Assembly (NCBI GenBank): GCA_964416445.1
Contig: CAYQEE010000010.1
Coordinates: 1,136 to 65,135, forward strand
Reading direction: 5' to 3'
Length of the DNA: 64,000 nt
DNA from: an uncultured Gammaproteobacteria bacterium
Lineage (GTDB): Bacteria > Patescibacteriota > Microgenomatia > Levybacterales > UBA12049
Translations under genes and position numbers: made by a program
Notes under the pieces: model-generated
Database searches by the model: none
What the model was told of the DNA's origin: nothing
What the model saw: the letters and a program-made list of their open reading frames with translations, nothing else
Part shown: positions 19,192 to 45,600 of the stretch, one piece after another
Layout of the letters: each line of letters starts with the position of its first letter
How positions within the stretch are numbered: the first letter of the stretch is position 1

Positions 19192-19602
19192 TTAATTATC
19201 AATGTCTTCGGCTGGGTATTTTTTTCCGCGAACTTCTATTTCTACTTCAACGTCATCAGTTTTGAATATTTTTTTAAATTTTTCGATAGCTTTTTCAGCA
19301 TCAAACTGTTTACATGAATAAATATCCATAGTTACAAATCGTCTTTTAATAAAGGTATGAATACTAATATGTGATTCTTGTATCATAACAAATCCCGACC
19401 ATCCTCCAGGGTCTTTTTTACCGTTTGGTTGAGCGAAAGTAACAACTGGTGGAGTCAGAATTTTCATCCCAAGTTCCTTAGGCAACGTTGCAAGGATATT
19501 TGTTACCAGTTCTTTATCGTTTAACGCGTCAGGGGCACAGTTATACATATCCATCATTACATGGAGTCCAAAAGGAACAGTTTGTCTAGTGGTTTTTTTC
19601 AT
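19192..19602 (-). CDS. speH: S-adenosylmethionine decarboxylase proenzyme (small SpeH/SpeD class)
   Basis: FVMIQESHISIHTF self-processing region (ES|HISIHT) and FGLHVMMDMYNC. 136 aa. Confidence 0.7.
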   Translation of the reverse strand: MKKTTRQTVPFGLHVMMDMYNCAPDALNDKELVTNILATLPKELGMKILTPPVVTFAQPNGKKDPGGWSGFVMIQESHISIHTFIKRRFVTMDIYSCKQFDAEKAIEKFKKIFKTDDVEVEIEVRGKKYPAEDIDN

Positions 19603-29341: not shown

Positions 29342-29410
29342 TTTACCTTCATGAGTATATCATTTTACTTGGCAATTTTCATCTCTGCGGAAAAATACGT
29401 CGATATCATG

Positions 29411-31804
29411 TACTATAAAAGGAAGTTGATAAAAATCAATAAAAACACTTTTGGCAGCTCTTATTACAGGAAAGTATTTGTTTTGTGTTTGCTAGTATTT
29501 ATTTTACTTAGTATTTATCTGACAATTCTTTTATTATCACAGCGCCAACAGTTACAAGAGCATGCTGCAGGAAATGTTATTTATGCTAGTCCAGGTGATA
29601 ACCTAAACCAAAAAGTTAGTTCGCTTACTCCAGGTGATACGCTTATTTTTCATGATGGTATTTATAATGGATCGTTACCTGCAGCGAATATTCATGGTAC
29701 AAGTTCTCAACTTATAACAATTGAAGCAGAACATGATGGTATGGCAATCATTGATGGACAAAATACGGTAAGTACTGTTATTGATTTAAGTAATAGTTCT
29801 TACGTTCTCTTACAAGGTTTTGTTGCAAGGAATTCATCTGGCAGTGTCGTACGAGGCGATGGGAGTAATCATATAACCGTAAGTAGAGTTACTGCGTATA
29901 ATGCAGGGTCAGGAAATACGAATTGTTTTACCATGTCAAATGGGGCAAGTTATGATTTGGTTGTCGATGCAGCATCTTGGGGAAGATGCAGGTATGGTTT
30001 TCTCGCATACCATTCCAGTAATATAACGTTTCGCAGAACCTTTGCAAAATGGGAACAAACAGATAATTTTTCTCCTGCGCCTCGAAGTGGGTACGGAGCC
30101 TATGGGTCAACGTTTATCTCTTTTGAAAATGTAATCGGCTATGATATCCAACCAACAACCAATGTCTCCGACTTCTTTTCTGGCGTTTGGGAAACTTCTG
30201 ACGGTCCATCAACACATGATATTTCTTATTATGGTTCTATTTTTTATCATGTGTTAGGTGATGGAATTCGCGTAAATGACTTGCAAGCATTTCCTAATAC
30301 CATTATCAAAGATAGCTTTTTTAGCAATCCTCTGGTTCAAAATATTAGTTATCCCTTTACTAAAGGAGCAGGAATTGAATGGGTGACTCCAATAACTGGT
30401 ACGGTTAGTAATAATGTCTTTATGGGGAATAACATCGGAATCAATCAAGGAAACGGTGTCCCAAGTGTTATGAATAATATTTTTATGAATAATTCCACTG
30501 CAATATCGGGTTCAATTCAAGGAAGCTATAATGATTTTTGGCAAAATTCTAGTAATGGGTATACTCCAGGTTCAACAGATAAACAAATAGATCCAGCGTT
30601 TAATGTCGCAAAGTATGGATTAGGTGCATACTTTTTTGTACCTTCGACATCACCATTAAAAAATTCTGGACAGGGAGGAAGTGAAATTGGAGCAAATATT
30701 ATCTATGAGTATGTAAATGGTCAACTTACCAATGTCCCTCTATGGCCATGGCCTATGGAAAACAGAATTAAAGCAGAACGGGGTATTAGTGTTACATGGG
30801 CTTCAGGTGGAGGTTTTTGGAACTCTTTAGATGGTGTATATCCAAGTATTACTATTACTCTACCGATTTCTTCTCCCCAACCATCTCCTTCTAGTAGTCC
30901 AGTACCAACAAACACACCTCAACCAACAAGTCAACCAACGGGAACACCCAAACCAACGAGTACTCCTACTCCAACGCCAACGACGTATCCATCAGGCGTT
31001 ACTTATTGTGGAGCACATTGTCAATCCAATAGTGATTGTGATCAAAGTGGGGTAACCTGTGGAATTTGTGATCCTGACGCATTGGTCTGCACCACAGGAA
31101 ATGGTTCAATTACTCCTACTCCTTCCTTGTCTCTTACGCCAACCAGTGGTACTTCTGTAACACCAACTGATACCCCCTCACCAACTCAAACACGACTGAG
31201 TAGCCCTACTCCATTTACTACACTTACGCCTACCCCCACCCTTGGCCCAGCGGTGGGGATACTCTCTTTGCATTTTGAAGGAATTGATCCTCAAAACAAT
31301 AGTAAACCCACTCATCCCCAACGAAGTGTTCTACTTTCTTTTTATCCTACCAATGACTTTACAAAAACTCCTCAAACTACCCTTCCCGTGATTGTTTCTT
31401 TTAACTCTGCTGATCCACTGGGTTCTTTTGTCAACACCAATATTGATCTTTCCTCCATTCCACGAGGCAGTTACTATCTCCTCGCTAAATCTCCTGAAGG
31501 ATCTCTCAGAGAAGAACTCTCCTCACAACTGGTCTCTATCACCAATGGACAAACAGTCTCTCTCAATGGAACAACTCCTACCAATATGCAAATGGGTAAC
31601 ATTAATAATGATAATCAAATTGATCTATCTGACTATAATATTCTCGTTGATTGTTACGGAGCAAAACAAGCAAGCCCTGCCTGTAAAGTACATTCCATCT
31701 CAGACCAATACCAACCAAACTTCGCTGACCTCAATGACGATGGTATCGTCAATGGGGTCGATTACAATCTCTTAATAAGAAATTTTGGAAAAACTGGATA
31801 TTAA
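29411..31804 (+). CDS. Membrane-anchored or secreted right-handed beta-helix (pectate-lyase-fold) protein with Pro/Thr linker and C-terminal dockerin-like module
   Basis: N-terminal hydrophobic anchor. Periodic parallel-beta-helix repeats (NxxGSG.../SNH...). A roughly 120-aa low-complexity P/T/S linker (SPQPSPSSSPVPTNTPQPTSQPTGTPKPTSTPTPTPTT). Two dockerin-type Ca-binding repeats (NDNQIDLSDYNILVDCY; DLNDDGIVNGVDYNLLIRNF). Start moved from 29351 to the ATG at 29411 before the hydrophobic segment. Confidence 0.7.
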   Translation, partial: YYKRKLIKINKNTFGSSYYRKVFVLCLLVFILLSIYLTILLLSQRQQLQEHAAGNVIYASPGDNLNQKVSSLTPGDTLIFHDGIYNGSLPAANIHGTSSQLITIEAEHDGMAIIDGQNTVSTVIDLSNSSYVLLQGFVARNSSGSVVRGDGSNHITVSRVTAYNAGSGNTNCFTMSNGASYDLVVDAASWGRCRYGFLAYHSSNITFRRTFAKWEQTDNFSPAPRSGYGAYGSTFISFENVIGYDIQPTTNVSDFFSGVWETSDGPSTHDISYYGSIFYHVLGDGIRVNDLQAFPNTIIKDSFFSNPLVQNISYPFTKGAGIEWVTPITGTVSNNVFMGNNIGINQGNGVPSVMNNIFMNNSTAISGSIQGSYNDFWQNSSNGYTPGSTDKQIDPAFNVAKYGLGAYFFVPSTSPLKNSGQGGSEIGANIIYEYVNGQLTNVPLWPWPMENRIKAERGISVTWASGGGFWNSLDGVYPSITITLPISSPQPSPSSSPVPTNTPQPTSQPTGTPKPTSTPTPTPTTYPSGVTYCGAHCQSNSDCDQSGVTCGICDPDALVCTTGNGSITPTPSLSLTPTSGTSVTPTDTPSPTQTRLSSPTPFTTLTPTPTLGPAVGILSLHFEGIDPQNNSKPTHPQRSVLLSFYPTNDFTKTPQTTLPVIVSFNSADPLGSFVNTNIDLSSIPRGSYYLLAKSPEGSLREELSSQLVSITNGQTVSLNGTTPTNMQMGNINNDNQIDLSDYNILVDCYGAKQASPACKVHSISDQYQPNFADLNDDGIVNGVDYNLLIRNFGKTGY

Positions 31805-32080
31805 TTATTGTTCAATTTCCTCTGAAAATGAGAAAAAGATATGCCAAATTTTCTTAATGATCGTTTTTGGAATATTTTGTTCATCCGCCTTTTTCTCTAA
31901 TGCTTCAACTACTGTTTTTTCTCTTGGAAAATCTCGTATTTCAAATCCACCCGATTTTTTAAAATCGCCAATTTTTTTCATAATTTCAAGTCGTCTTTTA
32001 ACTAACTGTAATAATTCATTATCAAGTGCATCAATATCGCTTCGTAATTTTGCTAAATTGTCCGTATCGTTAACTTTCAT
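31805..32080 (-). CDS. Chorismate mutase (AroQ class, monofunctional, ~91 aa)
   Basis: LRSDIDALDNELLQLVKRRLEIMKKIG...R...K helical AroQ pattern. Start trimmed to the ATG at 32080 to give the usual size. 11-nt overlap with the pheA stop. Confidence 0.6.
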   Translation of the reverse strand: MKVNDTDNLAKLRSDIDALDNELLQLVKRRLEIMKKIGDFKKSGGFEIRDFPREKTVVEALEKKADEQNIPKTIIKKIWHIFFSFSEEIEQ

Positions 32081-32894
32081 AAATTGTGCCACGTTCATAG
32101 ACGCCAAGAATTTTATATGTGCTTGCATATTTTTGTAATATTTGTGAAATGAGATGCCTATCAATTAATGTAGGGGTAACTTCAACATCGATCCAAAATT
32201 GATATTCCCATTCAGTTCCGGGAATTGGGCGTGATTCAATTTTTGTTATATTAATCTTTCGGTCGGCTAATTGCATCAACAAATTCGCTAAGGAGCCTGG
32301 TGTATGGGGAATAGTAAAAATAATTGAAGACTTATTTCCTTGTGTTTCCTTCCTTTGAGAAGATACAAGGAAAAATCTGGTGATATTATAATGGTTATCC
32401 CCTATATTGGGCAATACAATAGTAAGGCGCGGGTCATTTGCTAATTCTTTACTTCCAATTGCCGCTGCACGTTTATCATCAATTTGCAGGATCAGATCTT
32501 TTGCATTTGCAGTACTTACTGTTTCTTGAAACGAAAGATGGTAGTTCTGGATAAAATTTTTGCACTGAGCAAGTGCTTTGGGGTGAGAATATACTTTTAT
32601 AATATCTTCAAGAGACGCAGTATGGAGTCCAATCAGATAAAGGTTTATTTTCAAATATGCTTCTTGTACTATCTTAAGATTTTCATGGAATAAATAATCC
32701 ATGTTTTCATGAATATTACTCGTGATTGAATTTTCAATGGGGAGCACTCCAATCGTGCGTGGATTTTCCATAACTTTTTCAACAATCTCTGCAAAGTTAG
32801 GACAGGACAATAACTGATAATCATCTCCAAAAACTTTTTTTGCAAGAATATGACTGTAGGAATTCTGTGGTCCTAAATAATATGCGCAAGTCAT
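32070..32894 (-). CDS. pheA: Prephenate dehydratase with C-terminal ACT domain
   Basis: PDT domain (YLGPQNSYSH...TIGVLPIENS...) plus ACT. 274 aa. Confidence 0.8.
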   Translation of the reverse strand: MTCAYYLGPQNSYSHILAKKVFGDDYQLLSCPNFAEIVEKVMENPRTIGVLPIENSITSNIHENMDYLFHENLKIVQEAYLKINLYLIGLHTASLEDIIKVYSHPKALAQCKNFIQNYHLSFQETVSTANAKDLILQIDDKRAAAIGSKELANDPRLTIVLPNIGDNHYNITRFFLVSSQRKETQGNKSSIIFTIPHTPGSLANLLMQLADRKINITKIESRPIPGTEWEYQFWIDVEVTPTLIDRHLISQILQKYASTYKILGVYERGTIYES

Positions 32895-33664
32895 CTAAAA
32901 TTTGCCTCCTTCTTTAATCTAATCAGTGTGTCAATACTGTGGGAAAGAAGCTGCCGGCTAAATTTATTATAAATAATCATATCAAGTAATAATGCTTTAT
33001 TAATCCCCATATAACTTAATGCTTCGAATAAGTAAGAGGGCGCTGGAGTATCAATAATAGTTGGGTTTAGTTTTTGCTCAGTGGCAAGATATCGTACCAT
33101 TTGTGCAAAAAATTGTGATTGCGCAACAAGTTTATCATGCTCCTGAGGATTCATTTCAGTGACTTGAATGCCAAGCGATTGAAAGTAATGCTTTACGCAA
33201 GCAAAGATGGTTTCAGGCGAAGAGACGTTATAAATTACCAAGGGCAATCCTGCTAATAGCCCTTCTTTTTTTGCAATACTTGTCGGCCCAAACATTGGAT
33301 GGGTAGCTATTATAGCAATATTTTTGGGAAGGTGTTTTTTGAGAATATTGACGGGGTATTCTTTTACTGAACAAACATCAATAATTGTTTGTGATGGGTT
33401 AATGAATTTTCCAATCTCTAACACGACAGCTTCAAATGATCGAATGGAAACAGCGGGGATAATTATATCTGCGGATTGTATGACTTCACCAATGGAAGCT
33501 TTAGGAGTGCAGTGTGTGGGTAAGGATTTTTTATGAATATGGGGAGAATAAACCACAATGCGGTTATTTGGAAATAAATTTTCACCTATTACTTCACCAA
33601 ATTTCCCATAACCGATGATTCCTAATGTTTTTTCTAACAAGTTGAAATGCATATGGTTATTCAT
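32891..33664 (-). CDS. tyrA: Prephenate/arogenate dehydrogenase
   Basis: Rossmann [12 protein letters not shown]-binding N-terminus, PDH C-domain. 257 aa. Embedded in the aro operon. Confidence 0.7.
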
Positions 33665-34749
33665 TCATTTTGTGCTTTATGCCGTAAGATATGATCCATG
33701 ATAACTAATGCGGCCATAGCATCAACAATTGGCACTGCGCGTGGTAGGACACAGGGGTCATGCCGACCAAATGCCTTTAGGGTGGTTTCCTCGCGTTGAC
33801 GGGTAATTGTTTTTTGCTCTCTCTGAATTGTAGACACTGGCTTAAATGCAACACGAAAATATATTGGTTGCCCTGTTGAGATACCACCTAAGGTACCACC
33901 TGCAAAATTAGTTCTTGTTTTTACATTTCCCTGTTGGTCTAAGTAAAATTCATCATTATGTTGGCTACCACGCAGTTCAACTCCTGAAAATCCTGAACCA
34001 AATTCAAATCCTTTTGTTGCGTTAATACTCATCATTGCTTTCGCAAGGTCTGCAGGAAGCTTATCGAAAACTGGTTCTCCAAGCCCTGCTGGCACCTGTT
34101 TGATGACTCCCCGGATAATTCCACCCACAGAATCTCCTTCATCTCGTATTTTTTCAATAAGGGCAATCATTTCTGAAGCAAGTTGCTTATCAGGACAACG
34201 CACAATAGTTGATTCGATCTGTTCTTTGGTGACTTCACGAAAGTCTATGTGCGTTTTAACTGTACCTACTTGTTCAACATAACTGAGAATTTCAATACCG
34301 TATTGTTCGGTTAGGTACTTTTTGGCAATGGCTCCAGCTGCTACACGTGCTAATGTTTCGCGTGCAGATGCTCGACCGCTTCCTCTCACATCGCGTATAC
34401 CATATTTTTTTTCGAAAGTATAATCTGCATGACCTGGCCGATAAACATTTGCTAAATGATCGTAATCTTCTGGCCTCATATCCATGTTATATGCAAGAAG
34501 AAGAATTGGTGTTCCCGTAGTTTTCCCTTCGAAGACACCAGACAGGATGTGAATACGGTCTTGTTCTTTTCTTGGTGTTGTTATACTGCTTTGACCGGGC
34601 TTTCGCCTATCAAGTTCTTTTTGAATTTCTTCCTGGGAAATCGATATGCCTGGGGGACATCCATCGACAACGCAACCCACTCCTCCCCCGTGAGATTCTC
34701 CAAATGTCGTTATTCGAAATAATTGTCCAAAAGTATTTCCTGGCATCAT
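33661..34749 (-). CDS. aroC: Chorismate synthase
   Basis: [18 protein letters not shown] signature. 362 aa. Confidence 0.9.
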
Positions 34750-35561
34750 TACTCCTTTTGCATAAGTACTCTTTCCATAATGTCTATTGGTGGTTCAACG
34801 CCTGTATATTGTGAAAATTTGAGAACTGCTTGCCAAAAAAGCATTCGTTCTCCATAAACTATTTTACACCCTTTTACTTGCGCATCTCGGATGAATTTTG
34901 TTTCCCGTGGTTTTGCAATTACATCCATAACGATTCGCTTTTCAGGAATTTCTGTTATGGGAACTACTGAATCATTCTCAGAATACATACCAACTGTTGT
35001 TGCTTGAATAATAATATCTGCATGCGATAATTCTTGTGAGAGATTTGTGAAAGAACCATACCTGCATGCAACTTTTTCAGCAAGATTCTTTGCATGTTCT
35101 TCGGTTCGATTTAAAATGATAACATTTGCCCCAGCATCTTTTAGTGCAAATGCTAACGCATGTGCAACTCCACCGGCACCAAGAAGCACAATGTTTTTTT
35201 TCGAGATTTCTGTTACTTCTTGCAATGCTTTTATTCCACCTTTTCCATCAGTATTTCCACCAATTAATTTCCCATTATGATTTGTAACGATATTGACTGC
35301 ACCAATTCTCTGCGCATCGTTATCAAGTTCATCGAGAAAAGGTATAATAGCAATTTTATAAGGTATGGTTACTCCTACGGCATGTAATCCTAATCCACGT
35401 ATTCCTTTTACTGCCTCAGCCAAATTTGTAACAATGAGAGGGATATAAATAAAATTAAGATTCAGTTCAGCAAAAGCAGCATTATATAATGCATACATTT
35501 TACTTGTTTTGTATGTTGTTCCCAAAAAACCTATTACTTTTGTTTCACCGTTAATTCTCAT
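34749..35561 (-). CDS. aroE: Shikimate dehydrogenase
   Basis: Shikimate-DH N-domain plus Rossmann GAGGVA. 270 aa. Confidence 0.8.
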
Positions 35562-36132
35562 AATTTTCTATTTTCATTACAATATCTGCCACAATTTCTT
35601 TTGGAAATTCTTGGTTAATTGGTATGTTAATATTTGCTAATCGTTCGTAGATTGGCATTCGAGTTGCTAAAAGTTCATCTAATGATTTTTTGGGATTATC
35701 TTGATATGGAAAAAAAGGAGGGATCCCTTTCGCACGTATCCTTTGCAATAATATTGATCGATCAACATTGAGATAAATAATTATTCCTAACGGTAATAGA
35801 AGCTTTTGATTATTCTCGGAAAGTATCGTGCCCCCCCCGACAGATAGCACGAACGGTTCGGATTGTTGCATATTTTTTATTAACTGTGCTAGTGCTGTAT
35901 GTTCGAGATTTCTGAAATTTTCAGAACCTTTTTTCTTGAAAATTTCTCGAGAAGAAAGTTTCTCAGAATATTTTTTTTCATATTCTTTTTCAAGTATCTG
36001 ATCTAATTCTAACTGGTGATATCCGAGCTTTTGGGCAAGCAGATTACCAATGGTAGTTTTACCACTGCCTTTCATTCCGATGAGAATAATATTTGGTTTA
36101 TTTCTCATAGAGCGTAAAGTTAGCTCCCGCAT
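35551..36132 (-). CDS. aroK: Shikimate kinase
   Basis: P-loop GMKGSGKTTIG. About 190 aa. The true start may be the internal ATG near 36108. Confidence 0.8.
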   Translation of the reverse strand: MRELTLRSMRNKPNIILIGMKGSGKTTIGNLLAQKLGYHQLELDQILEKEYEKKYSEKLSSREIFKKKGSENFRNLEHTALAQLIKNMQQSEPFVLSVGGGTILSENNQKLLLPLGIIIYLNVDRSILLQRIRAKGIPPFFPYQDNPKKSLDELLATRMPIYERLANINIPINQEFPKEIVADIVMKIENYEN

Positions 36133-37414
36133 CTTTCATATCGGGTATAAATGTATCAAATGATTTGTCTACCATTTGCGCATCAGAAATAGTTGTTTCT
36201 CCGTCAATTTGCATACCTGCAAGTGCGAATGAAAGAACCATTCGATGATCGAAATATCCATTAATTTGAGCAGCATGTAATTTCCAAGAACCATCATTAT
36301 CAATGAGTAATCCATCTTCTTTTTCAACTACTTTTGCACCCATTTTTTTAAGTTCTGTTGCTAAAGCACTGATACGATCACATTCTTTCCATCGAGCAGT
36401 TAATGCATTTTTAATTATTGTTTTTCCTTTTGCAAAACAGGCAGCGATGGCAATAGTAGGAACTTGGTCAGGTAAGTCATTCATATCAATTTCAAGTCCA
36501 TGTAATTGGCTTGTTCTTGCAGTAATTGTGTTGTTCTCAATAGTTATATCTGCTCCCATTTGTTCTAAGATCGTGAGAACTTTTTTATCTCCATACGGAT
36601 CTTGTAAATCCATTCCTCGTACTGTTATTTCTGATGAGGGTGTGAGCACGGCAGCTAATAATGGATAAGGTGGTGCAGACATTTCAAAGGGAATTTCCGC
36701 ATCAAATGAATGAGGTAATGTATTGCCTGAAAATTTATAATGATCATATCTATTATCGACATTTTCAAATGATACCCCTACTTTCTTAAACCAATACAAA
36801 AGTAAATCAATATATGCTTTTTCTCCAGGATTTCTAACAAATATCTCAACAGGTTTATTCGACATAGCTGAGGCAATAAGAACACTAAATACTGGTTGGC
36901 AACCTATACCATCCATATGCGCTACACCTCCATTTACTTTTCCTTTGATAAGGAATGGTGCCATTCCATCATTTTTTGTAGATATTATCGTTATGCCAAG
37001 TTGTTGAAATGGTTCAAGTAATTTCTCAGAAATTTTACGAAGCGTTCGAATTGATTTATCACCAGTAATAATAGACCATTCTGAACATGCTGCAGCGACA
37101 CCTAAAATAAAAAATAACATTGTTCCTGAATTGTTGACATTAATTATATCAGGAGGTGTATGTAAATTTCCTCCAACTCCAGTTATCTGAAAAATATTAG
37201 GTTCAAGTTCTTCGATTTTTGCTCCATACATTTTCATCGCATTTACAGCTTCATACCAATCAGCACTTACTTTTGGCTTTCGTATTATTGAAATCCCTTG
37301 AGCTAACGAAGCTAAGATAAGTGCTCGAAATGAATGTGTTTTACTTCGAGGCATACGAATATTCCCACGTAAATGTTTACTTTTTTTAACGGACAATATC
37401 ATGTTTTTTTTCAT
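36098..37414 (-). CDS. aroA: 3-phosphoshikimate 1-carboxyvinyltransferase (EPSP synthase)
   Basis: 438 aa. N-terminal LRGNIRMPRSKTHSFRALILASLAQG EPSPS signature. Confidence 0.85.
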   Translation of the reverse strand: MKKNMILSVKKSKHLRGNIRMPRSKTHSFRALILASLAQGISIIRKPKVSADWYEAVNAMKMYGAKIEELEPNIFQITGVGGNLHTPPDIINVNNSGTMLFFILGVAAACSEWSIITGDKSIRTLRKISEKLLEPFQQLGITIISTKNDGMAPFLIKGKVNGGVAHMDGIGCQPVFSVLIASAMSNKPVEIFVRNPGEKAYIDLLLYWFKKVGVSFENVDNRYDHYKFSGNTLPHSFDAEIPFEMSAPPYPLLAAVLTPSSEITVRGMDLQDPYGDKKVLTILEQMGADITIENNTITARTSQLHGLEIDMNDLPDQVPTIAIAACFAKGKTIIKNALTARWKECDRISALATELKKMGAKVVEKEDGLLIDNDGSWKLHAAQINGYFDHRMVLSFALAGMQIDGETTISDAQMVDKSFDTFIPDMKDAGANFTLYEK

Positions 37415-37417
37415 AAA

Positions 37418-37855
37418 TTATTTCCTTACATAAGTAACCAATTTTTTGAGACCTTCATAATAACTTTTCTCCTGTAATCCAACGATCTGATCAATCCGAA
37501 CATCGTCGAGTACATTGATTGCCTTACTAATTCCTGTTTTATGAATATCAGACATATGAACTTCTATAATAGGTTTACTGAAATCAATACATGCAGCGCG
37601 AAGACTATATCCATAACGAACGAGAGCTCCAGGATTTATTACTGCACCTTCTGCTGCTCGTGACGAATCTTGTTGGAGAAAGTCAATAATTGCTCCTTCA
37701 TGATTTGATTGAAAAATAGATAATTCGCATCCTAATGATTTACCAAGTATTTCAAGTTGATGGTTAATTTCCGAAAGTGTCAGTTTACCGTATTTATTGG
37801 AATCACGTTTTCCTAACATGTTAAGATTTGGCCCGTGAATAATTAATGCTTTCAT
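37418..37855 (-). CDS. aroQ: 3-dehydroquinate dehydratase, type II
   Basis: MKALIIHGPNLNMLGKR...H motif of type II DHQase. 145 aa. Confidence 0.85.
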   Translation of the reverse strand: MKALIIHGPNLNMLGKRDSNKYGKLTLSEINHQLEILGKSLGCELSIFQSNHEGAIIDFLQQDSSRAAEGAVINPGALVRYGYSLRAACIDFSKPIIEVHMSDIHKTGISKAINVLDDVRIDQIVGLQEKSYYEGLKKLVTYVRK

Positions 37856-37857
37856 AA

Positions 37858-38946
37858 TTATCTAATTTCTTTCAATGCTGTGCGAATAATGTTTTCAGAA
37901 ACTTGCTGGTTATATTTCGCTCTACCGATTTTTTCCAATAAGGTCCACTGTAAAACACCGTTCTCTATTTTTTTATCAAACATAATATTTCTCAGTATGT
38001 CTTCTTCGGTAATAAAGTGAATTGTTGTTTGAAGACCTGTATCTTTCAGCTTATGAATAACATATTCACTTTCTTCATGCGAGAGCAATTTCTGTAATTC
38101 AGATATTCGCGTTTCTACAATCATACCTAAAAGAATTGCTTCTCCATGCATAAGTGGCATACTCGAGGTAAAACTCAGAGATTCAATTGCATGACCAATA
38201 GTATGTCCAAAGTTAAGGATTTTCCTCAAACCTTTTTCTGTTGCATCTGTTTCAACTATTTTTGCTTTAATTTCAACAGATCGTAATATAATTTCTGCTA
38301 ACTCAGAATTGGTAAATTCAAAAGGTTTTTTAGCTGTTACTTTTTCAAAGTAGTTTCTATCTATGAGTAATCCATGTTTAATAATTTCAGCAAATCCTTC
38401 TAGGAACGCTCTTTTTGGTAATGTTTTTAGTGTCTCAATATCAATAATAACTGCTGAGGGTTGCGTGAACGTTCCAATATAATTTTTAAACTCATTTAAA
38501 TTAATACCGAGTTTTCCTCCGACCATAGCATCAACCTGAGCAGTAATGCTAGTTGGAATTTGAATGAATTCTATTCCTCGCATATACGTACTTGCTGCAA
38601 ATCCTCCCATATCTCCAATGACACCTCCTCCTAAGTTAATCACTAAGGAATTTCTATCAAATTGATTTTTGAGAAGATGATTCCATATCGTTGTTACGGT
38701 ATCAATAGTTTTTACTTTTTCCCCAGGAGGTAAAACCAATGGATAAAGAGGACTCTCCATACCTGATTGTAATTTTACTAACCAAGGTTTCTGTACATTA
38801 CTGTCAGTGATGACGGCAATTTTTGAGTATCCTTCTCTTGGTAATATTCGAGAAATATCTTTTAGCATATCTTCACCAATAAATACGGTATAAGAATGTG
38901 ACTTTTCCGGAATATGAATTGTTGTTTTATACATCATAGGTTTCAT
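37858..38946 (-). CDS. aroB: 3-dehydroquinate synthase
   Basis: 362 aa. GGGVIGDMGGFAA glycine-rich NAD motif. Metal-binding His residues. Confidence 0.85.
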   Translation of the reverse strand: MKPMMYKTTIHIPEKSHSYTVFIGEDMLKDISRILPREGYSKIAVITDSNVQKPWLVKLQSGMESPLYPLVLPPGEKVKTIDTVTTIWNHLLKNQFDRNSLVINLGGGVIGDMGGFAASTYMRGIEFIQIPTSITAQVDAMVGGKLGINLNEFKNYIGTFTQPSAVIIDIETLKTLPKRAFLEGFAEIIKHGLLIDRNYFEKVTAKKPFEFTNSELAEIILRSVEIKAKIVETDATEKGLRKILNFGHTIGHAIESLSFTSSMPLMHGEAILLGMIVETRISELQKLLSHEESEYVIHKLKDTGLQTTIHFITEEDILRNIMFDKKIENGVLQWTLLEKIGRAKYNQQVSENIIRTALKEIR

Positions 38947-38966
38947 AGAAATTTACTAATGATTAT

Positions 38967-39755
38967 CTATATTTTTTGTTTCGCTTTTTCCTTTTCAAGA
39001 TCGTCGGTTAATACTTGGAGTTGTTTCCAAGTTATTTGTTGTTTGGCATCAGTAACAGCAACCGATGGATTTGGATGTACTTCTATAATCAAGCCATCAA
39101 TGTTGTATTGGTTTGCTTCATGCGCAATTCGAAACACATTCTCGACAGTCCCTCCAGTATGTGATGGATCAAATACCATAGGAAGACCCGTTTTCTTTTT
39201 TATTCTCATTGACATCTCCCAATCAGGAATATTTCGATATCCTTGAGGGTTTTCTCCATAAGGTACAAAACCTCGGTGGCAAAGAATAAGATTTTCTTTT
39301 TTTACTCCTCCAGCAAGAACATGCTCTACAATTCCTTCCCAATGTTTTTCATCTGGCCATATTTGATTTTTAACCATAAGGACGATTCGCTTATCTTGTG
39401 CTGCTATCCGTGCGAGTTCTCGTTGGATATAATGATTTTGGTTTCTTGCTCCAATCCAAATCATAAGTTTTCCATTCTTTAATTCGGGAAGAACGGCATC
39501 AATCACTTTTTTTGCCTGTTCAGGAATGAGCGGTTCTACTGCAGGATTGAGACCAGCTTTTGCTGCTTGGATCAAAAATGGAATCCCATTCTCTCCAAAC
39601 CCTTCAAAACCAGGTTTTGTGCGTGGTTTCCATAAACTGAGCCTAATAAAATCAACACCGAAGTTTTTTGCTTGTGTGATTGATTCTGTCACCTGTGCTT
39701 GTGACTCAACTGCACAAGGTCCGGCAATAATTATTGTTTTTCTTCGTTTTTTCAT
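38967..39755 (-). CDS. aroG: 3-deoxy-7-phosphoheptulonate (DAHP) synthase, type I-beta (KDO8PS-like)
   Basis: IIIAGPCAVES...LWKPRT...DPSH pattern of the DAHPS/KDOPS family. Its position as first gene of the aro operon favours DAHPS. Start trimmed from the ORF-track 39866 to the ATG at 39755. Confidence 0.75.
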   Translation of the reverse strand: MKKRRKTIIIAGPCAVESQAQVTESITQAKNFGVDFIRLSLWKPRTKPGFEGFGENGIPFLIQAAKAGLNPAVEPLIPEQAKKVIDAVLPELKNGKLMIWIGARNQNHYIQRELARIAAQDKRIVLMVKNQIWPDEKHWEGIVEHVLAGGVKKENLILCHRGFVPYGENPQGYRNIPDWEMSMRIKKKTGLPMVFDPSHTGGTVENVFRIAHEANQYNIDGLIIEVHPNPSVAVTDAKQQITWKQLQVLTDDLEKEKAKQKI

Positions 39756-39765
39756 ATTTAGGTAT

Positions 39766-39788
39766 AAAAAAACCTCCCTTGTGGGAGG
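39766..39788 (-). terminator. Leader-region intrinsic terminator (attenuator 3:4 hairpin) directly upstream of aroG
   Basis: Minus-strand RNA CCUCCC-ACAA-GGGAGG followed by U7. It ends 11 nt before the aroG ATG. Confidence 0.6.
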
Positions 39789-39811
39789 TGCTGTTTCTTC
39801 TTTTGTGTGTT

Positions 39812-39886
39812 TTATTTTACACGAAACAACCTCCCGGGTTGGGAAGTAAAGTAAAAATAAAACCAACTTTTATTTTGTAAATGCAT
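39812..39886 (-). CDS. Aromatic amino-acid attenuation leader peptide (24 aa: MHLQNKSWFYFYFTSQPGRLFRVK)
   Basis: A small ORF in the aroG leader with a run of UGG UUU UAU UUU UAC UUU (W F Y F Y F) immediately 5' of hairpin arm 1 (CUUCCC, 39846-39841). Its stop codon lies between the alternative hairpins. Confidence 0.55.
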   Translation of the reverse strand: MHLQNKSWFYFYFTSQPGRLFRVK

Positions 39887-39895
39887 AACTCGTTC

Positions 39896-39924
39896 ATCTT
39901 ACCAAGGATTAATTGCCTTGTCAA
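39896..39924 (-). promoter_or_regulatory. Sigma70-like promoter of the aro operon (TTGACA-17-TAAGAT)
   Basis: On the minus strand, -35 is the rc of 39919-39924 and -10 is the rc of 39896-39901, with a 17-nt spacer. The predicted start (~39889) is only ~3 nt upstream of the leader-peptide ATG. Confidence 0.4.
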
Positions 39925-42601: not shown

Positions 42602-44563
42602 TTAAGATTTAACGCGAGCTTGAAATGTTTGAGAAACTGATGTAATTATTTTTTCTCGTATTGACTCTATTTCAAGATCAGTTAAATTTTGATTCTGATT
42701 TTGATAGATAATATGGAAGGTTCGTGAATTCTCAAATTGATCAAGCAAGTCTACTGATGTTATCAAATCACTTTGTTTTTTAATTTCCTTAATAATGTCT
42801 CCTGTTTTTACACTGGGGTCAATAATAAGAGCGAGATCTTCAATGACAGGAGGAAATTTGGGAATAGGAGTAAAGACTTTCTTTAAAGTTGAGTGCTTTT
42901 GAAAAATAACAAAATTTAATTCAAAGGAAACCATATTACTTTCAAGTACTTCTATATTTCCCAGAAAATCGTTTCCGATATAAATATCAGCTCCAACTCC
43001 CCCTTTTGTTAAATCTTTAAATTGCAGATTTTGTATACCACAATCTTTTGCTAATTGTTCAACGATTCCTTTCAAATGGTAAAAAGATATTCCATCTTGT
43101 TTCCATAGAGCTGCAAAAGTAAGTACTTCATTTGGTAAATCAAACTGTTTTTTATGATAAACATTTGCGATTTCAAATAACTTAATTTTCTCTTTTCCTG
43201 CATTTTCACGAGCGACCTCAAGCAAACTTGGGAGTACGGTTTTTCTCATATAGATATGGTCGGTATCAAGAGGGTTATCAATAATTACTGCTTCCTCTAA
43301 TGGTCCTTCATATAGTTTCTCTGAAACCATAGAATATGTATAGGTTTCGTTAAAACCCCAATATTTCATTGCATCTTTCACTCTGTCCTCCCAAAAAAAC
43401 TGATTCGTTTCTTGATGAAACGGTGTTGCAATGGTAAAAGAAGGAAGTTCACTTGGAATATTATGATATCCAAATACTCTAGCGATTTCTTCAATAACAT
43501 CTTCTTCAATTGTAATATCTTTGTTTCTCCAGGAAGGTACACTAACTTCGAGCGTATCTTTTAACTCTTTGATAGTAAATCCTAAGATTTGCAAAATATT
43601 GATCGATTGTTGGATGGGAATTGCAATTCCAATGACTTGACTAATTTTTGACTTAGTAACGGTAACAACTTTCGGTTTTAGTTTTTTTGGATAGATATCG
43701 AAAATATCTGAAATTACTTTTGCATTTGCATATTGTTGATATAATTCGATACCTCGTAATAATGCTGGCATAGCTAATTCTGGATCAACATCTTTTTCAT
43801 TAAGACCTGCAGCTTCCGTTCGAATTGCAAGTGACATTGAGGTTTTTCTTATTCTTTGCGGGTCGTTATTATCAATAAAAAATAATACTCGTTTTGTAGA
43901 ATTAGTAATTACACTATTCTCGGTTCCCATAACTCCAAGCAAATCGATTATTTCTCCTTCTCCATTATCTGCAACAATATCCCCTCCTAACAGAGTATGC
44001 TTCTTTTTATCTAACGTAACGATTGTTTCGCCTTTTTGAGAAGGACGAATAATGAGCTTTTTAGTAGTTAATCGATCGAAATCGAATGCATGAGTAGGAT
44101 GACCAATTTCATGCATAACATAATTAGTAATATCGATAAGGTTATTCAATGATCGTGTACCAGATGCTTCTAGCCGGTCCTTCATAAATTGGGGGGATTC
44201 ATGCATCTCAACTTCTAATATAACTGCACAAACTCGTCTGACTAACGTGTCATCGTTTTTAATATCTATTTGCTCTTTTTGTAGTGATGTATTGTGTGGT
44301 TTAACCGCTTGCGCAGGAATAAATGTTGCTGGTATTTCAAAACGAGGCAAAACTGCTGCAGCTTCGCGAGCTAGTCCAATGATAGAAGCCATATCTGGCC
44401 TATTCGTTGTTACTTCTACATGATAAATAAAATCATGAGAATTCCATGGTTCTATTTGTTCAATTGATGCGCTTGTTAATGAAAGAGCTTTCGCTATCTC
44501 ATTGGGCTTTGCTTCAGTTTTCAGATGGTCTCGCAACCAACTATCAAGTATTTTAATATCCAT
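42602..44563 (-). CDS. pheT: Phenylalanyl-tRNA synthetase beta subunit (short form)
   Basis: B3/4 and B5 domains with a class II-like C-terminal core. 653 aa versus ~800 in typical bacteria, lacking the N-terminal tRNA-binding domain. Follows pheS. Confidence 0.8.
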   Translation of the reverse strand: MDIKILDSWLRDHLKTEAKPNEIAKALSLTSASIEQIEPWNSHDFIYHVEVTTNRPDMASIIGLAREAAAVLPRFEIPATFIPAQAVKPHNTSLQKEQIDIKNDDTLVRRVCAVILEVEMHESPQFMKDRLEASGTRSLNNLIDITNYVMHEIGHPTHAFDFDRLTTKKLIIRPSQKGETIVTLDKKKHTLLGGDIVADNGEGEIIDLLGVMGTENSVITNSTKRVLFFIDNNDPQRIRKTSMSLAIRTEAAGLNEKDVDPELAMPALLRGIELYQQYANAKVISDIFDIYPKKLKPKVVTVTKSKISQVIGIAIPIQQSINILQILGFTIKELKDTLEVSVPSWRNKDITIEEDVIEEIARVFGYHNIPSELPSFTIATPFHQETNQFFWEDRVKDAMKYWGFNETYTYSMVSEKLYEGPLEEAVIIDNPLDTDHIYMRKTVLPSLLEVARENAGKEKIKLFEIANVYHKKQFDLPNEVLTFAALWKQDGISFYHLKGIVEQLAKDCGIQNLQFKDLTKGGVGADIYIGNDFLGNIEVLESNMVSFELNFVIFQKHSTLKKVFTPIPKFPPVIEDLALIIDPSVKTGDIIKEIKKQSDLITSVDLLDQFENSRTFHIIYQNQNQNLTDLEIESIREKIITSVSQTFQARVKS

Positions 44564-44565
44564 AA

Positions 44566-45600
44566 TTAAAATTGTTCAAGAAAATCTAGCTTATTTGAAT
44601 ATAAAAGCCGTAAATCATCAATTTCTATTCCTTCTTTCATCATTAAAACACGTTCAACCCCCCAACCAAAAGCGAAACCAGTATATTTTTTGGGATCTAT
44701 ACCACCACTCTTCAAAACATTTGGATGAACCATACCAGCTCCGCCAAGCTCTAACCATCCAGCTTTACATAATTTACATCCTTTTCCTAAACACACGCCA
44801 CAGGTAACGTCGACTTCAAATGATGGCTCCGTAAATTGGAAATGGTAAGGACGGATTCGTGATATCCTCTCTTCTCCAAAATACGAACGAACAAAATAGT
44901 CGAGAACCCCTTTAAGATGTACAATTGAAATATTTTCGCCAACAACCAGTCCTTCAAATTGATGAAACATCTGTGTATGTGAAACATCCGCTTGTCGACG
45001 GTAACATTTTGCAATATTAAGCATTCTAATTGGCAATCCGGCCTTTTCCATTTCCCGAACTTGGCCTGATGAGGTATGGGGAGTTAAAATTATTTTTCCT
45101 TTATTTTTATGGGGCTTTTCTGTGATGAAGAAAGTTTCCCAATCATCTCGTGCGGGATGATTTTCAGGAAAATTGAGTGCGCTAAATGCATACCAATCCC
45201 ATTCAACTTCCGGATAACGAACTCGAGTAAACCCTATTTTTTCAAAAATAGAGGTAATCTCCCGGATTGCTTGAGTAATAAGATGAAGATGCCCTAATGG
45301 TGGTAGTATTCCCGGATTGGTTATATCTAAATATGATTTTGCGGTTTTACGTATCTTTTCTTTTAGTGAACGGATTCTTTCTGCTAATGCGTCTTCTATA
45401 GCATTTTTAATTTCATTTGCAAATTTACCTGCCGCAGGACGATTTTGAATGGGTATATTTGGTATTTCTTTTAATGCACGTGTCAATTTGCCATTTCGAC
45501 CTAAAAATTGAATCCGTATCTCCTCAAGAGATTGAGGAGTATCAGCTCCTAAGATGAGAGATAATGCTTCATTTTTGATTTGAATTAATAATTCTTCCAT
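44566..45600 (-). CDS. pheS: Phenylalanyl-tRNA synthetase alpha subunit
   Basis: Class II motifs (FRxE, GLGxERxxM-like GFAFGWGVERVLM). Start trimmed to the ATG at 45600 (MEELLIQIKNE). Confidence 0.85.
   Translation of the reverse strand: MEELLIQIKNEALSLILGADTPQSLEEIRIQFLGRNGKLTRALKEIPNIPIQNRPAAGKFANEIKNAIEDALAERIRSLKEKIRKTAKSYLDITNPGILPPLGHLHLITQAIREITSIFEKIGFTRVRYPEVEWDWYAFSALNFPENHPARDDWETFFITEKPHKNKGKIILTPHTSSGQVREMEKAGLPIRMLNIAKCYRRQADVSHTQMFHQFEGLVVGENISIVHLKGVLDYFVRSYFGEERISRIRPYHFQFTEPSFEVDVTCGVCLGKGCKLCKAGWLELGGAGMVHPNVLKSGGIDPKKYTGFAFGWGVERVLMMKEGIEIDDLRLLYSNKLDFLEQF

Follow-up and report, generated by a model that had tools for sequence, protein, structure and literature searches.

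The gene leader closest to the element described here is pheL, reported from the gamma subdivision with a Shine-Dalgarno (SD) sequence and a regulatory codon run of Phe only (PMC3082878). It controls pheA alone. Escherichia coli trpL (RF00513) is the paradigm of the mechanism: hairpin 1:2 is stable and forms by default, but when a stalled ribosome hides region 1, regions 2 and 3 pair and the 3:4 terminator is prevented. In Corynebacterium glutamicum, the experimentally tested aroR leader carries Phe-Tyr-Phe codons upstream of the DAHP synthase gene aroF; Tyr availability reportedly has no effect there, and the ilvBNC leader peptide is made without a ribosome-binding site (Neshat et al. 2014, cited in PMC11802643; PMC4046766). 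Here we describe a leader on the minus strand, 39924-39756, of a 64,000-nt stretch (the window) of contig CAYQEE010000010.1, which has SRR12266072 as its source run and derives from an uncultured bacterium of the Candidate Phyla Radiation (CPR). The leader very probably controls a ten-gene operon for aromatic amino acids by ribosome-mediated transcription attenuation through a leader peptide, a reading put forward in a first-pass annotation of the window and supported here by conservation, covariation and folds with a masked ribosome footprint.

Like pheL-pheA, the leader combines a short open reading frame (ORF) that contains regulatory codons with 1:2, 2:3 and 3:4 pairing alternatives and an intrinsic terminator. 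Its codon run mixes Phe, Tyr and Trp, whereas that of pheL is Phe-only, the first gene downstream encodes DAHP synthase instead of PheA, and its ORF lacks the SD sequence that E. coli pheL possesses. The hosts also differ: the leader occurs in CPR bacteria, Melainabacteria and cyanobacteria, pheL in the gamma subdivision (PMC3082878). Mixed aromatic codons ahead of a DAHP synthase gene recall aroR-aroF, a likeness in arrangement as the cited papers describe it; six aromatic codons are present here against three there, and the actinobacterial leader controls fewer genes. The mechanism is a textbook one and each single feature has a precedent. Full-text searches found no paper joining leader-peptide attenuation with Patescibacteria/CPR, nor the CPR shikimate pathway with Microgenomates, a result that covers the searchable literature and is no proof of novelty. 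Within that literature, what is new is the distribution of the leader and its possible homology to pheL. The host range (CPR, Melainabacteria and some cyanobacteria), the mixed F/Y(/W) run, the leaderless ORF and the size of the regulated operon are the notable features.

Leader elements and their alternative pairings

Every element listed in the first-pass annotation is found on the minus strand, to which all leader coordinates below refer. The sigma-70-type promoter (39896-39924) consists of a TTGACA -35 hexamer (39924-39919), a 17-nt spacer ending in TGg and a TAAGAT -10 hexamer (39901-39896); the promoter scan scored 10 of 12 matches plus the TG of an extended -10 element. The leader ORF (39812-39886) begins with an ATG at 39886, 9 nt past the -10 hexamer, has no SD sequence and encodes MHLQNKSWFYFYFTSQPGRLFRVK, 24 codons that are followed by a UAA stop at 39814-39812. 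From the spacing between the -10 hexamer and the ATG, the mRNA is predicted to be leaderless or to have a 5' untranslated region of 1-3 nt only.

The regulatory run UGG UUU UAU UUU UAC UUU (W-F-Y-F-Y-F; 39848-39865) directly precedes region 1 (ACUUCCC; 39841-39847), the 5' arm of hairpin 1:2; the distance is 0-1 nt and not the 3 nt given earlier. Across an AACCC loop lies region 2 (39823-39835), comprising GGGAGGU (39835-39829) and an extension, UGUUUC (39828-39823). Region 2 has two alternative partners, region 1 or region 3 (39783-39797). The latter consists of GAAACA (39797-39792), which pairs with the extension, a GC bulge and ACCUCCC (39789-39783); 41 nt separate GGGAGG of region 2 from CCUCCC of region 3. 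Region 4 (39766-39778), in which GGGAGGU (39778-39772) runs into U7 (39772-39766), completes an intrinsic terminator with a 7-bp G+C-rich stem and an ACAA tetraloop. Only 10 nt lie between the U-tract and the aroG ATG, and a premature 3' end is predicted around 39766-39768.

Calculated folding energies are -9.2 kcal/mol for 1:2, -12.0 kcal/mol for 3:4 and -18.0 kcal/mol for the extended 2:3 structure. The antiterminator had been annotated as a 6-bp GGGAGG/CCUCCC helix; this core stands, but the UGUUUC:GAAACA extension brings the helix to 13 bp (GGGAGGU+UGUUUC with GAAACA+gc+ACCUCCC). Downstream of region 2, a GUGUAA(AAUAA) motif (39812-39822) holds the leader stop codon. Relatives keep GUGUAA irrespective of reading frame: it holds the stop in some leaders and lies downstream of the stop in one (L005). 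The Rfam Phe_leader consensus contains it as well. A pause site, a termination context and a spacer hairpin are conceivable roles. The features of the attenuator class, an ORF with codons for the pathway products, an intrinsic terminator and a mutually exclusive antiterminator, are thus present, and a footprint model places the codons and the stop where they would switch the RNA.

In the mechanism we propose, transcription would start a few nucleotides before the leader AUG, and a ribosome would load on this 5'-terminal AUG and trail RNA polymerase; with a leaderless start, translation of the leader can begin once the 5' end exits the polymerase. Given an ample supply of charged tRNA-Phe and tRNA-Tyr, and possibly of charged tRNA-Trp too, the ribosome would reach the UAA and cover the extension of region 2, 1:2 would re-form behind it, and the free region 3 would pair with region 4. 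The resulting ACCUCCC-ACAA-GGGAGGU-U7 terminator would halt transcription ~10 nt before aroG. When charging with Phe or Tyr is low, the ribosome would stall on the last codons of the run with its footprint over region 1. Region 2 and its extension would then pair with region 3 as soon as this is synthesised, and the antiterminator would form in place of the terminator, allowing read-through into the ten genes.

Folds with a masked ribosome footprint, in which the RNA was taken as it is before region 4 is synthesised, agree with this scheme. When the ribosome occupied the final codon of the run, the 5' arm of the terminator was sequestered in 45 of 57 leaders (mean 0.85), compared with a mean of 0.48 for shuffled spacers. 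Placing the ribosome at the stop codon left the arm sequestered in only 6/57 leaders (mean 0.27). For the window leader the corresponding values are 1.00 and 0.14, and with the ribosome on the UAA, where it covers the region 2 extension, the explicit fold consists of 1:2 plus 3:4.

Conservation and covariation among related leaders

The aromatic run alone is weak evidence. The window has a G+C content of ~36 %, which makes F and Y codons cheap, and dinucleotide shuffles yield 0.35 runs of at least six aromatic codons per window in six frames against the one observed. Chance is instead excluded by position and by conservation across other genomes. We defined a leader as an ORF of at most 60 codons with at least four consecutive W/F/Y codons, followed by an intrinsic terminator. 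A scan of both strands of the whole window returned a single match, the leader before aroG. In 84 related loci, the same scan gave 50 matches in the ~38 kb just upstream of DAHP synthase genes vs 9 in the remaining ~839 kb, and 7 of these 9 are the same kind of leader situated further upstream. An FYFYF run at 19234 (+) was considered as a second aromatic leader in the window and rejected, being antisense to a 136-aa gene.

Four metagenomic loci (L002-L005), whose DAHP synthases are 79-84 % identical to that of the window, all have a TTGACA-17-TGnTAnnnT promoter, a short ORF and a CCUCCC-loop-GGGAGG-U7 terminator. Their leader peptides, MNLSRNYWFYFYFTQPGRLCSVK, MKMDKRNWFYFYFTSQPGRLVV, MKKQAFSWYYFYFTSQPGRLFGVK and MKLLNTYWFYFYFTP, keep the W-(F/Y)-Y-F-Y-F run, although codons alternate between TTT and TTC or between TAC and TAT and an F has been swapped for a Y once. 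Elsewhere the peptide drifts: N-termini are unrelated and C-termini differ, the L002 leader has an in-frame 3-nt deletion, and the L005 ORF ends within the hairpin 1 loop. Related genomes thus retain both features whose loss would have spoken against attenuation, the small ORF and the GGGAGG/CCUCCC complementarity.

We then used a DAHP synthase alignment as the query for a scan of GTDB with one genome per species, which gave 80 loci. A comparable leader lies upstream of the DAHP synthase homologue in ~61 of them. Carriers within the CPR are Microgenomates (Levy-, Davies-, Roizman- and Pacebacteria) and many unnamed bins, with MSSAQAWFYFYFTSLTGR, MKLTQNYFWFYFTSPTEG and MNKFAAFYFYFTSLTGR as typical peptides; MKNTRWQNSFYFFYFYGFPVGVVC is an example from Vampirovibrio/Melainabacteria, and the leader is also present in a few cyanobacterial bins. 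Attenuation and aromatic amino-acid biosynthesis had been called unexpected in a CPR-like genome; the operon leader is, on the contrary, widespread in Microgenomates and extends to two further groups. Among the 80 loci, chlamydial (Parachlamydia, Waddliaceae) and Bacteroidetes DAHP synthase homologues have no leader. One Waddliaceae locus with an 'MDGGYYYY..' ORF (L082) was treated as a chance match and excluded from alignments. The distance from the stop codon to the 5' arm of the terminator is 18-45 nt in every leader of the GTDB loci. In ~65 related leaders, an in-frame ATG begins a frame that stays open until its stop codon, which is placed at region 2 or directly past it.

The DAHP synthase subfamily itself is common to CPR bacteria, Melainabacteria, some cyanobacteria, environmental chlamydiae and one Bacteroidetes bin, at 43-66 % identity. 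The aromatic leader is confined to the first three of these groups (L032-L055 being loci of Melainabacteria and cyanobacteria) and is not found in L076, L081, L083, L084 and L085 (chlamydiae, Bacteroidetes).

To align the leaders we built a covariance model (R1) from 11 CPR leaders in which only 1:2 and 3:4 were specified. It replaced an alignment of 56 trimmed leaders with MAFFT and RNAalifold, which gave a near-empty consensus (4 pairs, -0.13 kcal/mol) because the helices were out of register. In 502 kb searched with R1, matches at E<0.01 number 56; all lie on the sense strand ahead of the DAHP synthase gene, and a single one is in the window. With filters off, the leader was also the site of the best match at each of the 12 loci from Melainabacteria and cyanobacteria (19.7-32 bits). 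Across the R1 alignment, 91.6 % of cells pair in 1:2 plus 3:4, with compensatory changes at 11/14 pairs and a covariation score of 0.295; shuffles score 0.148 and slid controls no higher than 0.089. Taken alone, 3:4 pairs in 97.9 % of cells and has compensatory changes at 5 of 7 pairs (56 leaders).

The same alignment, which was not fitted to the 2:3 antiterminator, shows 81.0 % of cells pairing in 2:3 vs 49-60 % for slid controls; none of 500 shuffles reaches the observed percentage paired, number of double-change cells or covariation score. In an independent partner-swap comparison, made to deal with shifts of the 2:3 register between terminator classes, each leader's own post-run spacer bound its own terminator 5' arm with a mean of -15.1 kcal/mol vs -11.6 kcal/mol for foreign arms, and in the three main terminator classes (CCUCC, GCUCCC and CCCCGC) the matching class bound best. 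The antiterminator thus tracks changes in the terminator stem across loci, and the 1:2 and 3:4 helices that had been read from the window leader covary in its relatives.

A sequence relationship with pheL emerges from the Rfam searches. No family matched the leader at its gathering threshold, which is 55 bits for Phe_leader (RF01859). With reporting by E-value, Phe_leader was the sole credible match, covering the full model at 43.0 bits (E 2.4e-6) in the window; scores for other CPR leaders were 52.6 (L005), 47.7 (L008), 45.0 (L066), 41.3 (L080) and 41.2 bits (L069), and leaders of Melainabacteria and cyanobacteria did not match this model. In the reverse direction, the only significant match of R1 on an 8-kb E. 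coli stretch was the pheL attenuator, in the same register (30.3 bits, E 2.7e-4). The leader is thus outside Phe_leader by threshold, though significantly and reciprocally similar to it. Aligned end to end, the CPR leader and Phe_leader have the motifs UUUAC(C)UUCCC..GGGAGG..UUUCGU(C)GUGUAAA and CCUCCC-loop-GGGAGG-U7 in common, and some CPR peptides end ..F-T-P-stop where E. coli pheL ends ..F-T-F-P-stop. The long helix of the Rfam model, in which the Phe codons pair with a GAA-rich segment, is not kept in the window leader. The Rfam searches found no sequence match to trpL in it.

Sequence similarity of this kind may reflect common descent, transfer or convergence. One tentative reading, which we consider possible but hold to be less likely than its converse, is that the CPR/Melainabacteria leader and gammaproteobacterial pheL are true homologues. 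They would then represent one RNA-plus-peptide module of ~110 nt, either very old or moved between phyla and between first genes (pheA vs DAHP synthase), that was re-fitted to a 5'-terminal AUG in a lineage that initiates almost purely without leaders. If true, this would be evidence for tight transcription-translation coupling operating in CPR bacteria. The family itself, present in ~60 GTDB species and linked by sequence to the pheL attenuator, is unannotated at current Rfam thresholds, and a covariance model of it could help to locate aromatic-pathway operons in metagenome bins and to tell where they truly begin.

Counterevidence and rival explanations

Several observations weigh against ribosome-mediated attenuation, or against its simplest form. 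First, the full-length RNA folded at equilibrium with region 1 masked is still in the terminator state (-22.3 kcal/mol), and full-length masked folds give the terminator for stalls on the last four codons. We therefore rejected a purely thermodynamic switch. The decision must be kinetic and co-transcriptional, for which the folds of RNA truncated ahead of region 4 are the model that applies: read-through would need 2:3 to be trapped before region 4 exists, which is beyond what folding can demonstrate. Known attenuators also decide kinetically.

Second, 1:2 is the stable default in trp, whereas here 2:3 is much more stable than 1:2 in the free RNA, which makes 1:2 a weaker anti-antiterminator than in the trp paradigm and suggests that the position of the terminating ribosome probably matters more. 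In the absence of translation, the default state may be read-through. According to the fold models, the terminating ribosome, more than hairpin 1:2, probably blocks antitermination, with 1:2 contributing as it re-forms behind it.

Third, 15 nt separate region 1 from the Trp codon upstream, too far for a ribosome stalled on that codon to cover region 1. Footprint geometry suggests that only stalls on the last 3-4 codons, which are F and Y codons, free region 2 by masking region 1. Of the W, F and Y codons proposed as regulatory, this geometry favours F and Y, while Trp is uncertain as a working sensor. Fourth, the fixed-column covariation of 2:3 is modest (0.137 vs 0.092 for shuffles and 0.115 for the best slid control), in part because its register shifts between terminator classes. 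Finally, aroG has no SD sequence at a distance usable for its translation after read-through, the nearby GGGAGG being 17 nt before its ATG. A role for the terminator GGGAGG as the aroG SD sequence, with translational control, was rejected for the window on the basis of this spacing and of a genome without SD use.

Ribosome-mediated attenuation by codon counting has its closest rival in nascent-peptide arrest, which we judge very unlikely. Here, the aromatic peptide (..WFYFYF-T-S/P..) would respond to free aromatic amino acids by stalling the ribosome from within the exit tunnel, in the manner of TnaC, and would operate the same RNA switch downstream. The RNA evidence is silent on the cause of the pause; a T-S/P that is fairly conserved comes after the run, and a Pro-stop end such as that of some leaders is a slowly terminating context (PMC3082878). 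However, the composition of the run varies freely (WFYFYF, YFWFYF, FYFFYFY, FYFYF, FYFFFYF), as do its length and flanks, which is more in line with codon counting than with a specific arrest motif. The conservation of 'TSQPGR' is explained at the RNA level, as these residues are encoded by regions 1 and 2, and an inducer-type sensor would have the wrong sign, turning a biosynthetic operon on when its product is abundant.

The strong promoter and strong intrinsic terminator would also suit an independent small gene or small RNA, that is, an aromatic micro-protein or an RNA unrelated to an operon transcribed from elsewhere. That the promoter scan picked up no second strong promoter-like site from the terminator to aroG argues neither way, but the 10 nt between U-tract and ATG leave no room for another promoter. 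Across phyla the unit is found, with few exceptions, right in front of aromatic-pathway genes, conservation of the peptide is limited to its aromatic run, and the complement of the terminator arm covaries with that arm, which would be purposeless in a plain terminator. These observations make an independent unit slightly less credible still than peptide arrest. Translation-free attenuation, in which a riboswitch, a T-box or an RNA-binding protein of the TRAP/PyrR type acts on the same terminator and antiterminator, draws on an alternative that is real and that any effector could in principle operate, but it is equally improbable: the leader has no Rfam riboswitch or T-box match even at E up to 10, is only ~120 nt long without a conserved aptamer-like core, and the placement of ATG, open frame and stop at region 2 in ~65 leaders would be unexplained without translation.

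Probable leaderless initiation, operon and host

The first-pass annotation had considered a near-leaderless leader ORF unusual. The near-leaderless start agrees with the spacing in ~45 related leaders, in which an equivalent promoter is present, 6-12 nt (mode 9-10) separate the end of its -10 hexamer from the ATG and an SD sequence is absent, but unusual it is not: of the 56 window ORFs of 150 aa or more, 5 have an SD-like motif ahead of the start, a share equal to background (8.9 %). SD motifs at background level together with the conserved spacing argue that leaderless or near-leaderless initiation is the normal mode of this lineage and a conserved property of the leader family. Judged from its sequence, the CPR genome of the window seems to rely mainly on leaderless mRNAs. 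The leader would thus offer a clean case, found in nature, of a leaderless mRNA that encodes a leader peptide, and a control device that needs a ribosome close behind the polymerase bears on transcription-translation coupling in the CPR. A TATAAT-like hexamer also lies 6-12 nt before the ATG of many window genes, for example at gene starts 58862(+), 6227(+), 26394(-), 49802(-), 49181(-), 45600(-), 20043(+), 40238(+) and 16184(-).

The regulated operon (31805-39755, minus) comprises ten tightly packed or overlapping genes. Pfam assigns them, in order, to DAHP synthase (aroG; 39755-38967, with its ATG at 39755), DHQ synthase (aroB), type II dehydroquinase (aroQ), EPSP synthase (aroA), shikimate kinase (aroK), shikimate dehydrogenase (aroE), chorismate synthase (aroC), prephenate dehydrogenase (tyrA), prephenate dehydratase with an ACT domain (pheA, the ninth gene) and chorismate mutase, which ends at 31805. 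The leader therefore precedes the whole DAHP-to-Phe/Tyr pathway, as had been claimed. At least one large CPR group, the Levybacteria-like Microgenomates, thus encodes the full shikimate-to-Phe/Tyr pathway, which bears on the self-sufficiency of these supposedly dependent organisms. Upstream of the leader, a gene for a class A penicillin-binding protein is oriented divergently, so the terminator is not part of that gene.

The arrangement varies among relatives. In several of them, tandem leader-peptide attenuators, each with its own aromatic-run ORF and terminator, precede a single DAHP synthase gene (L062 2239-2467, L063 2230-2445, L064 1958-2150, L065 2188-2450, L067 2186-2460 and L074 2089-2415); such tandems would give steeper or two-input control. 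In three other CPR relatives a PfkB-family sugar kinase gene lies between the leader and the DAHP synthase gene (L017 676-2471, L031 1575-2501 and L051 1575-2489), accompanied in L017 by a class II fructose-bisphosphate aldolase gene; the L031 operon also contains an aminotransferase gene. Sugar-phosphate genes in this position would also be under control of the attenuator, and the kinase and aldolase may supply precursors.

The CPR-like character attributed to the genome earlier holds: named homologues of its DAHP synthase and of PheRS beta (42602-44563, minus) belong to Levybacteria, Daviesbacteria, Microgenomates or the 'Patescibacteria group'. Numerous GTDB records titled 'uncultured Gammaproteobacteria' or 'Pseudomonadales' ('binchicken', co-assembly bins) carry a CPR-type DAHP synthase and leader (L009, L012, L021, L023, L026, L028, L031, L033, L041, L051, L053, L064, L066-L069, L071 and L077-L079), and these titles look like wrong taxonomic labels.

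The PheRS beta gene and the 344-aa ORF upstream of it (start 45600, minus), which is presumably pheS, have no aromatic leader; a -10-like TACAAT directly precedes the ATG at 45600. In E. coli, pheST is attenuated. At the other end of the aro operon, an 817-aa ORF (29351-31804, +) converges on it, with its stop abutting the chorismate mutase stop. This ORF has weak matches to dockerin type I and chondroitinase-B-like domains, and a dockerin-labelled protein flanks the aro operon in one of the four closest relatives (L003) too.

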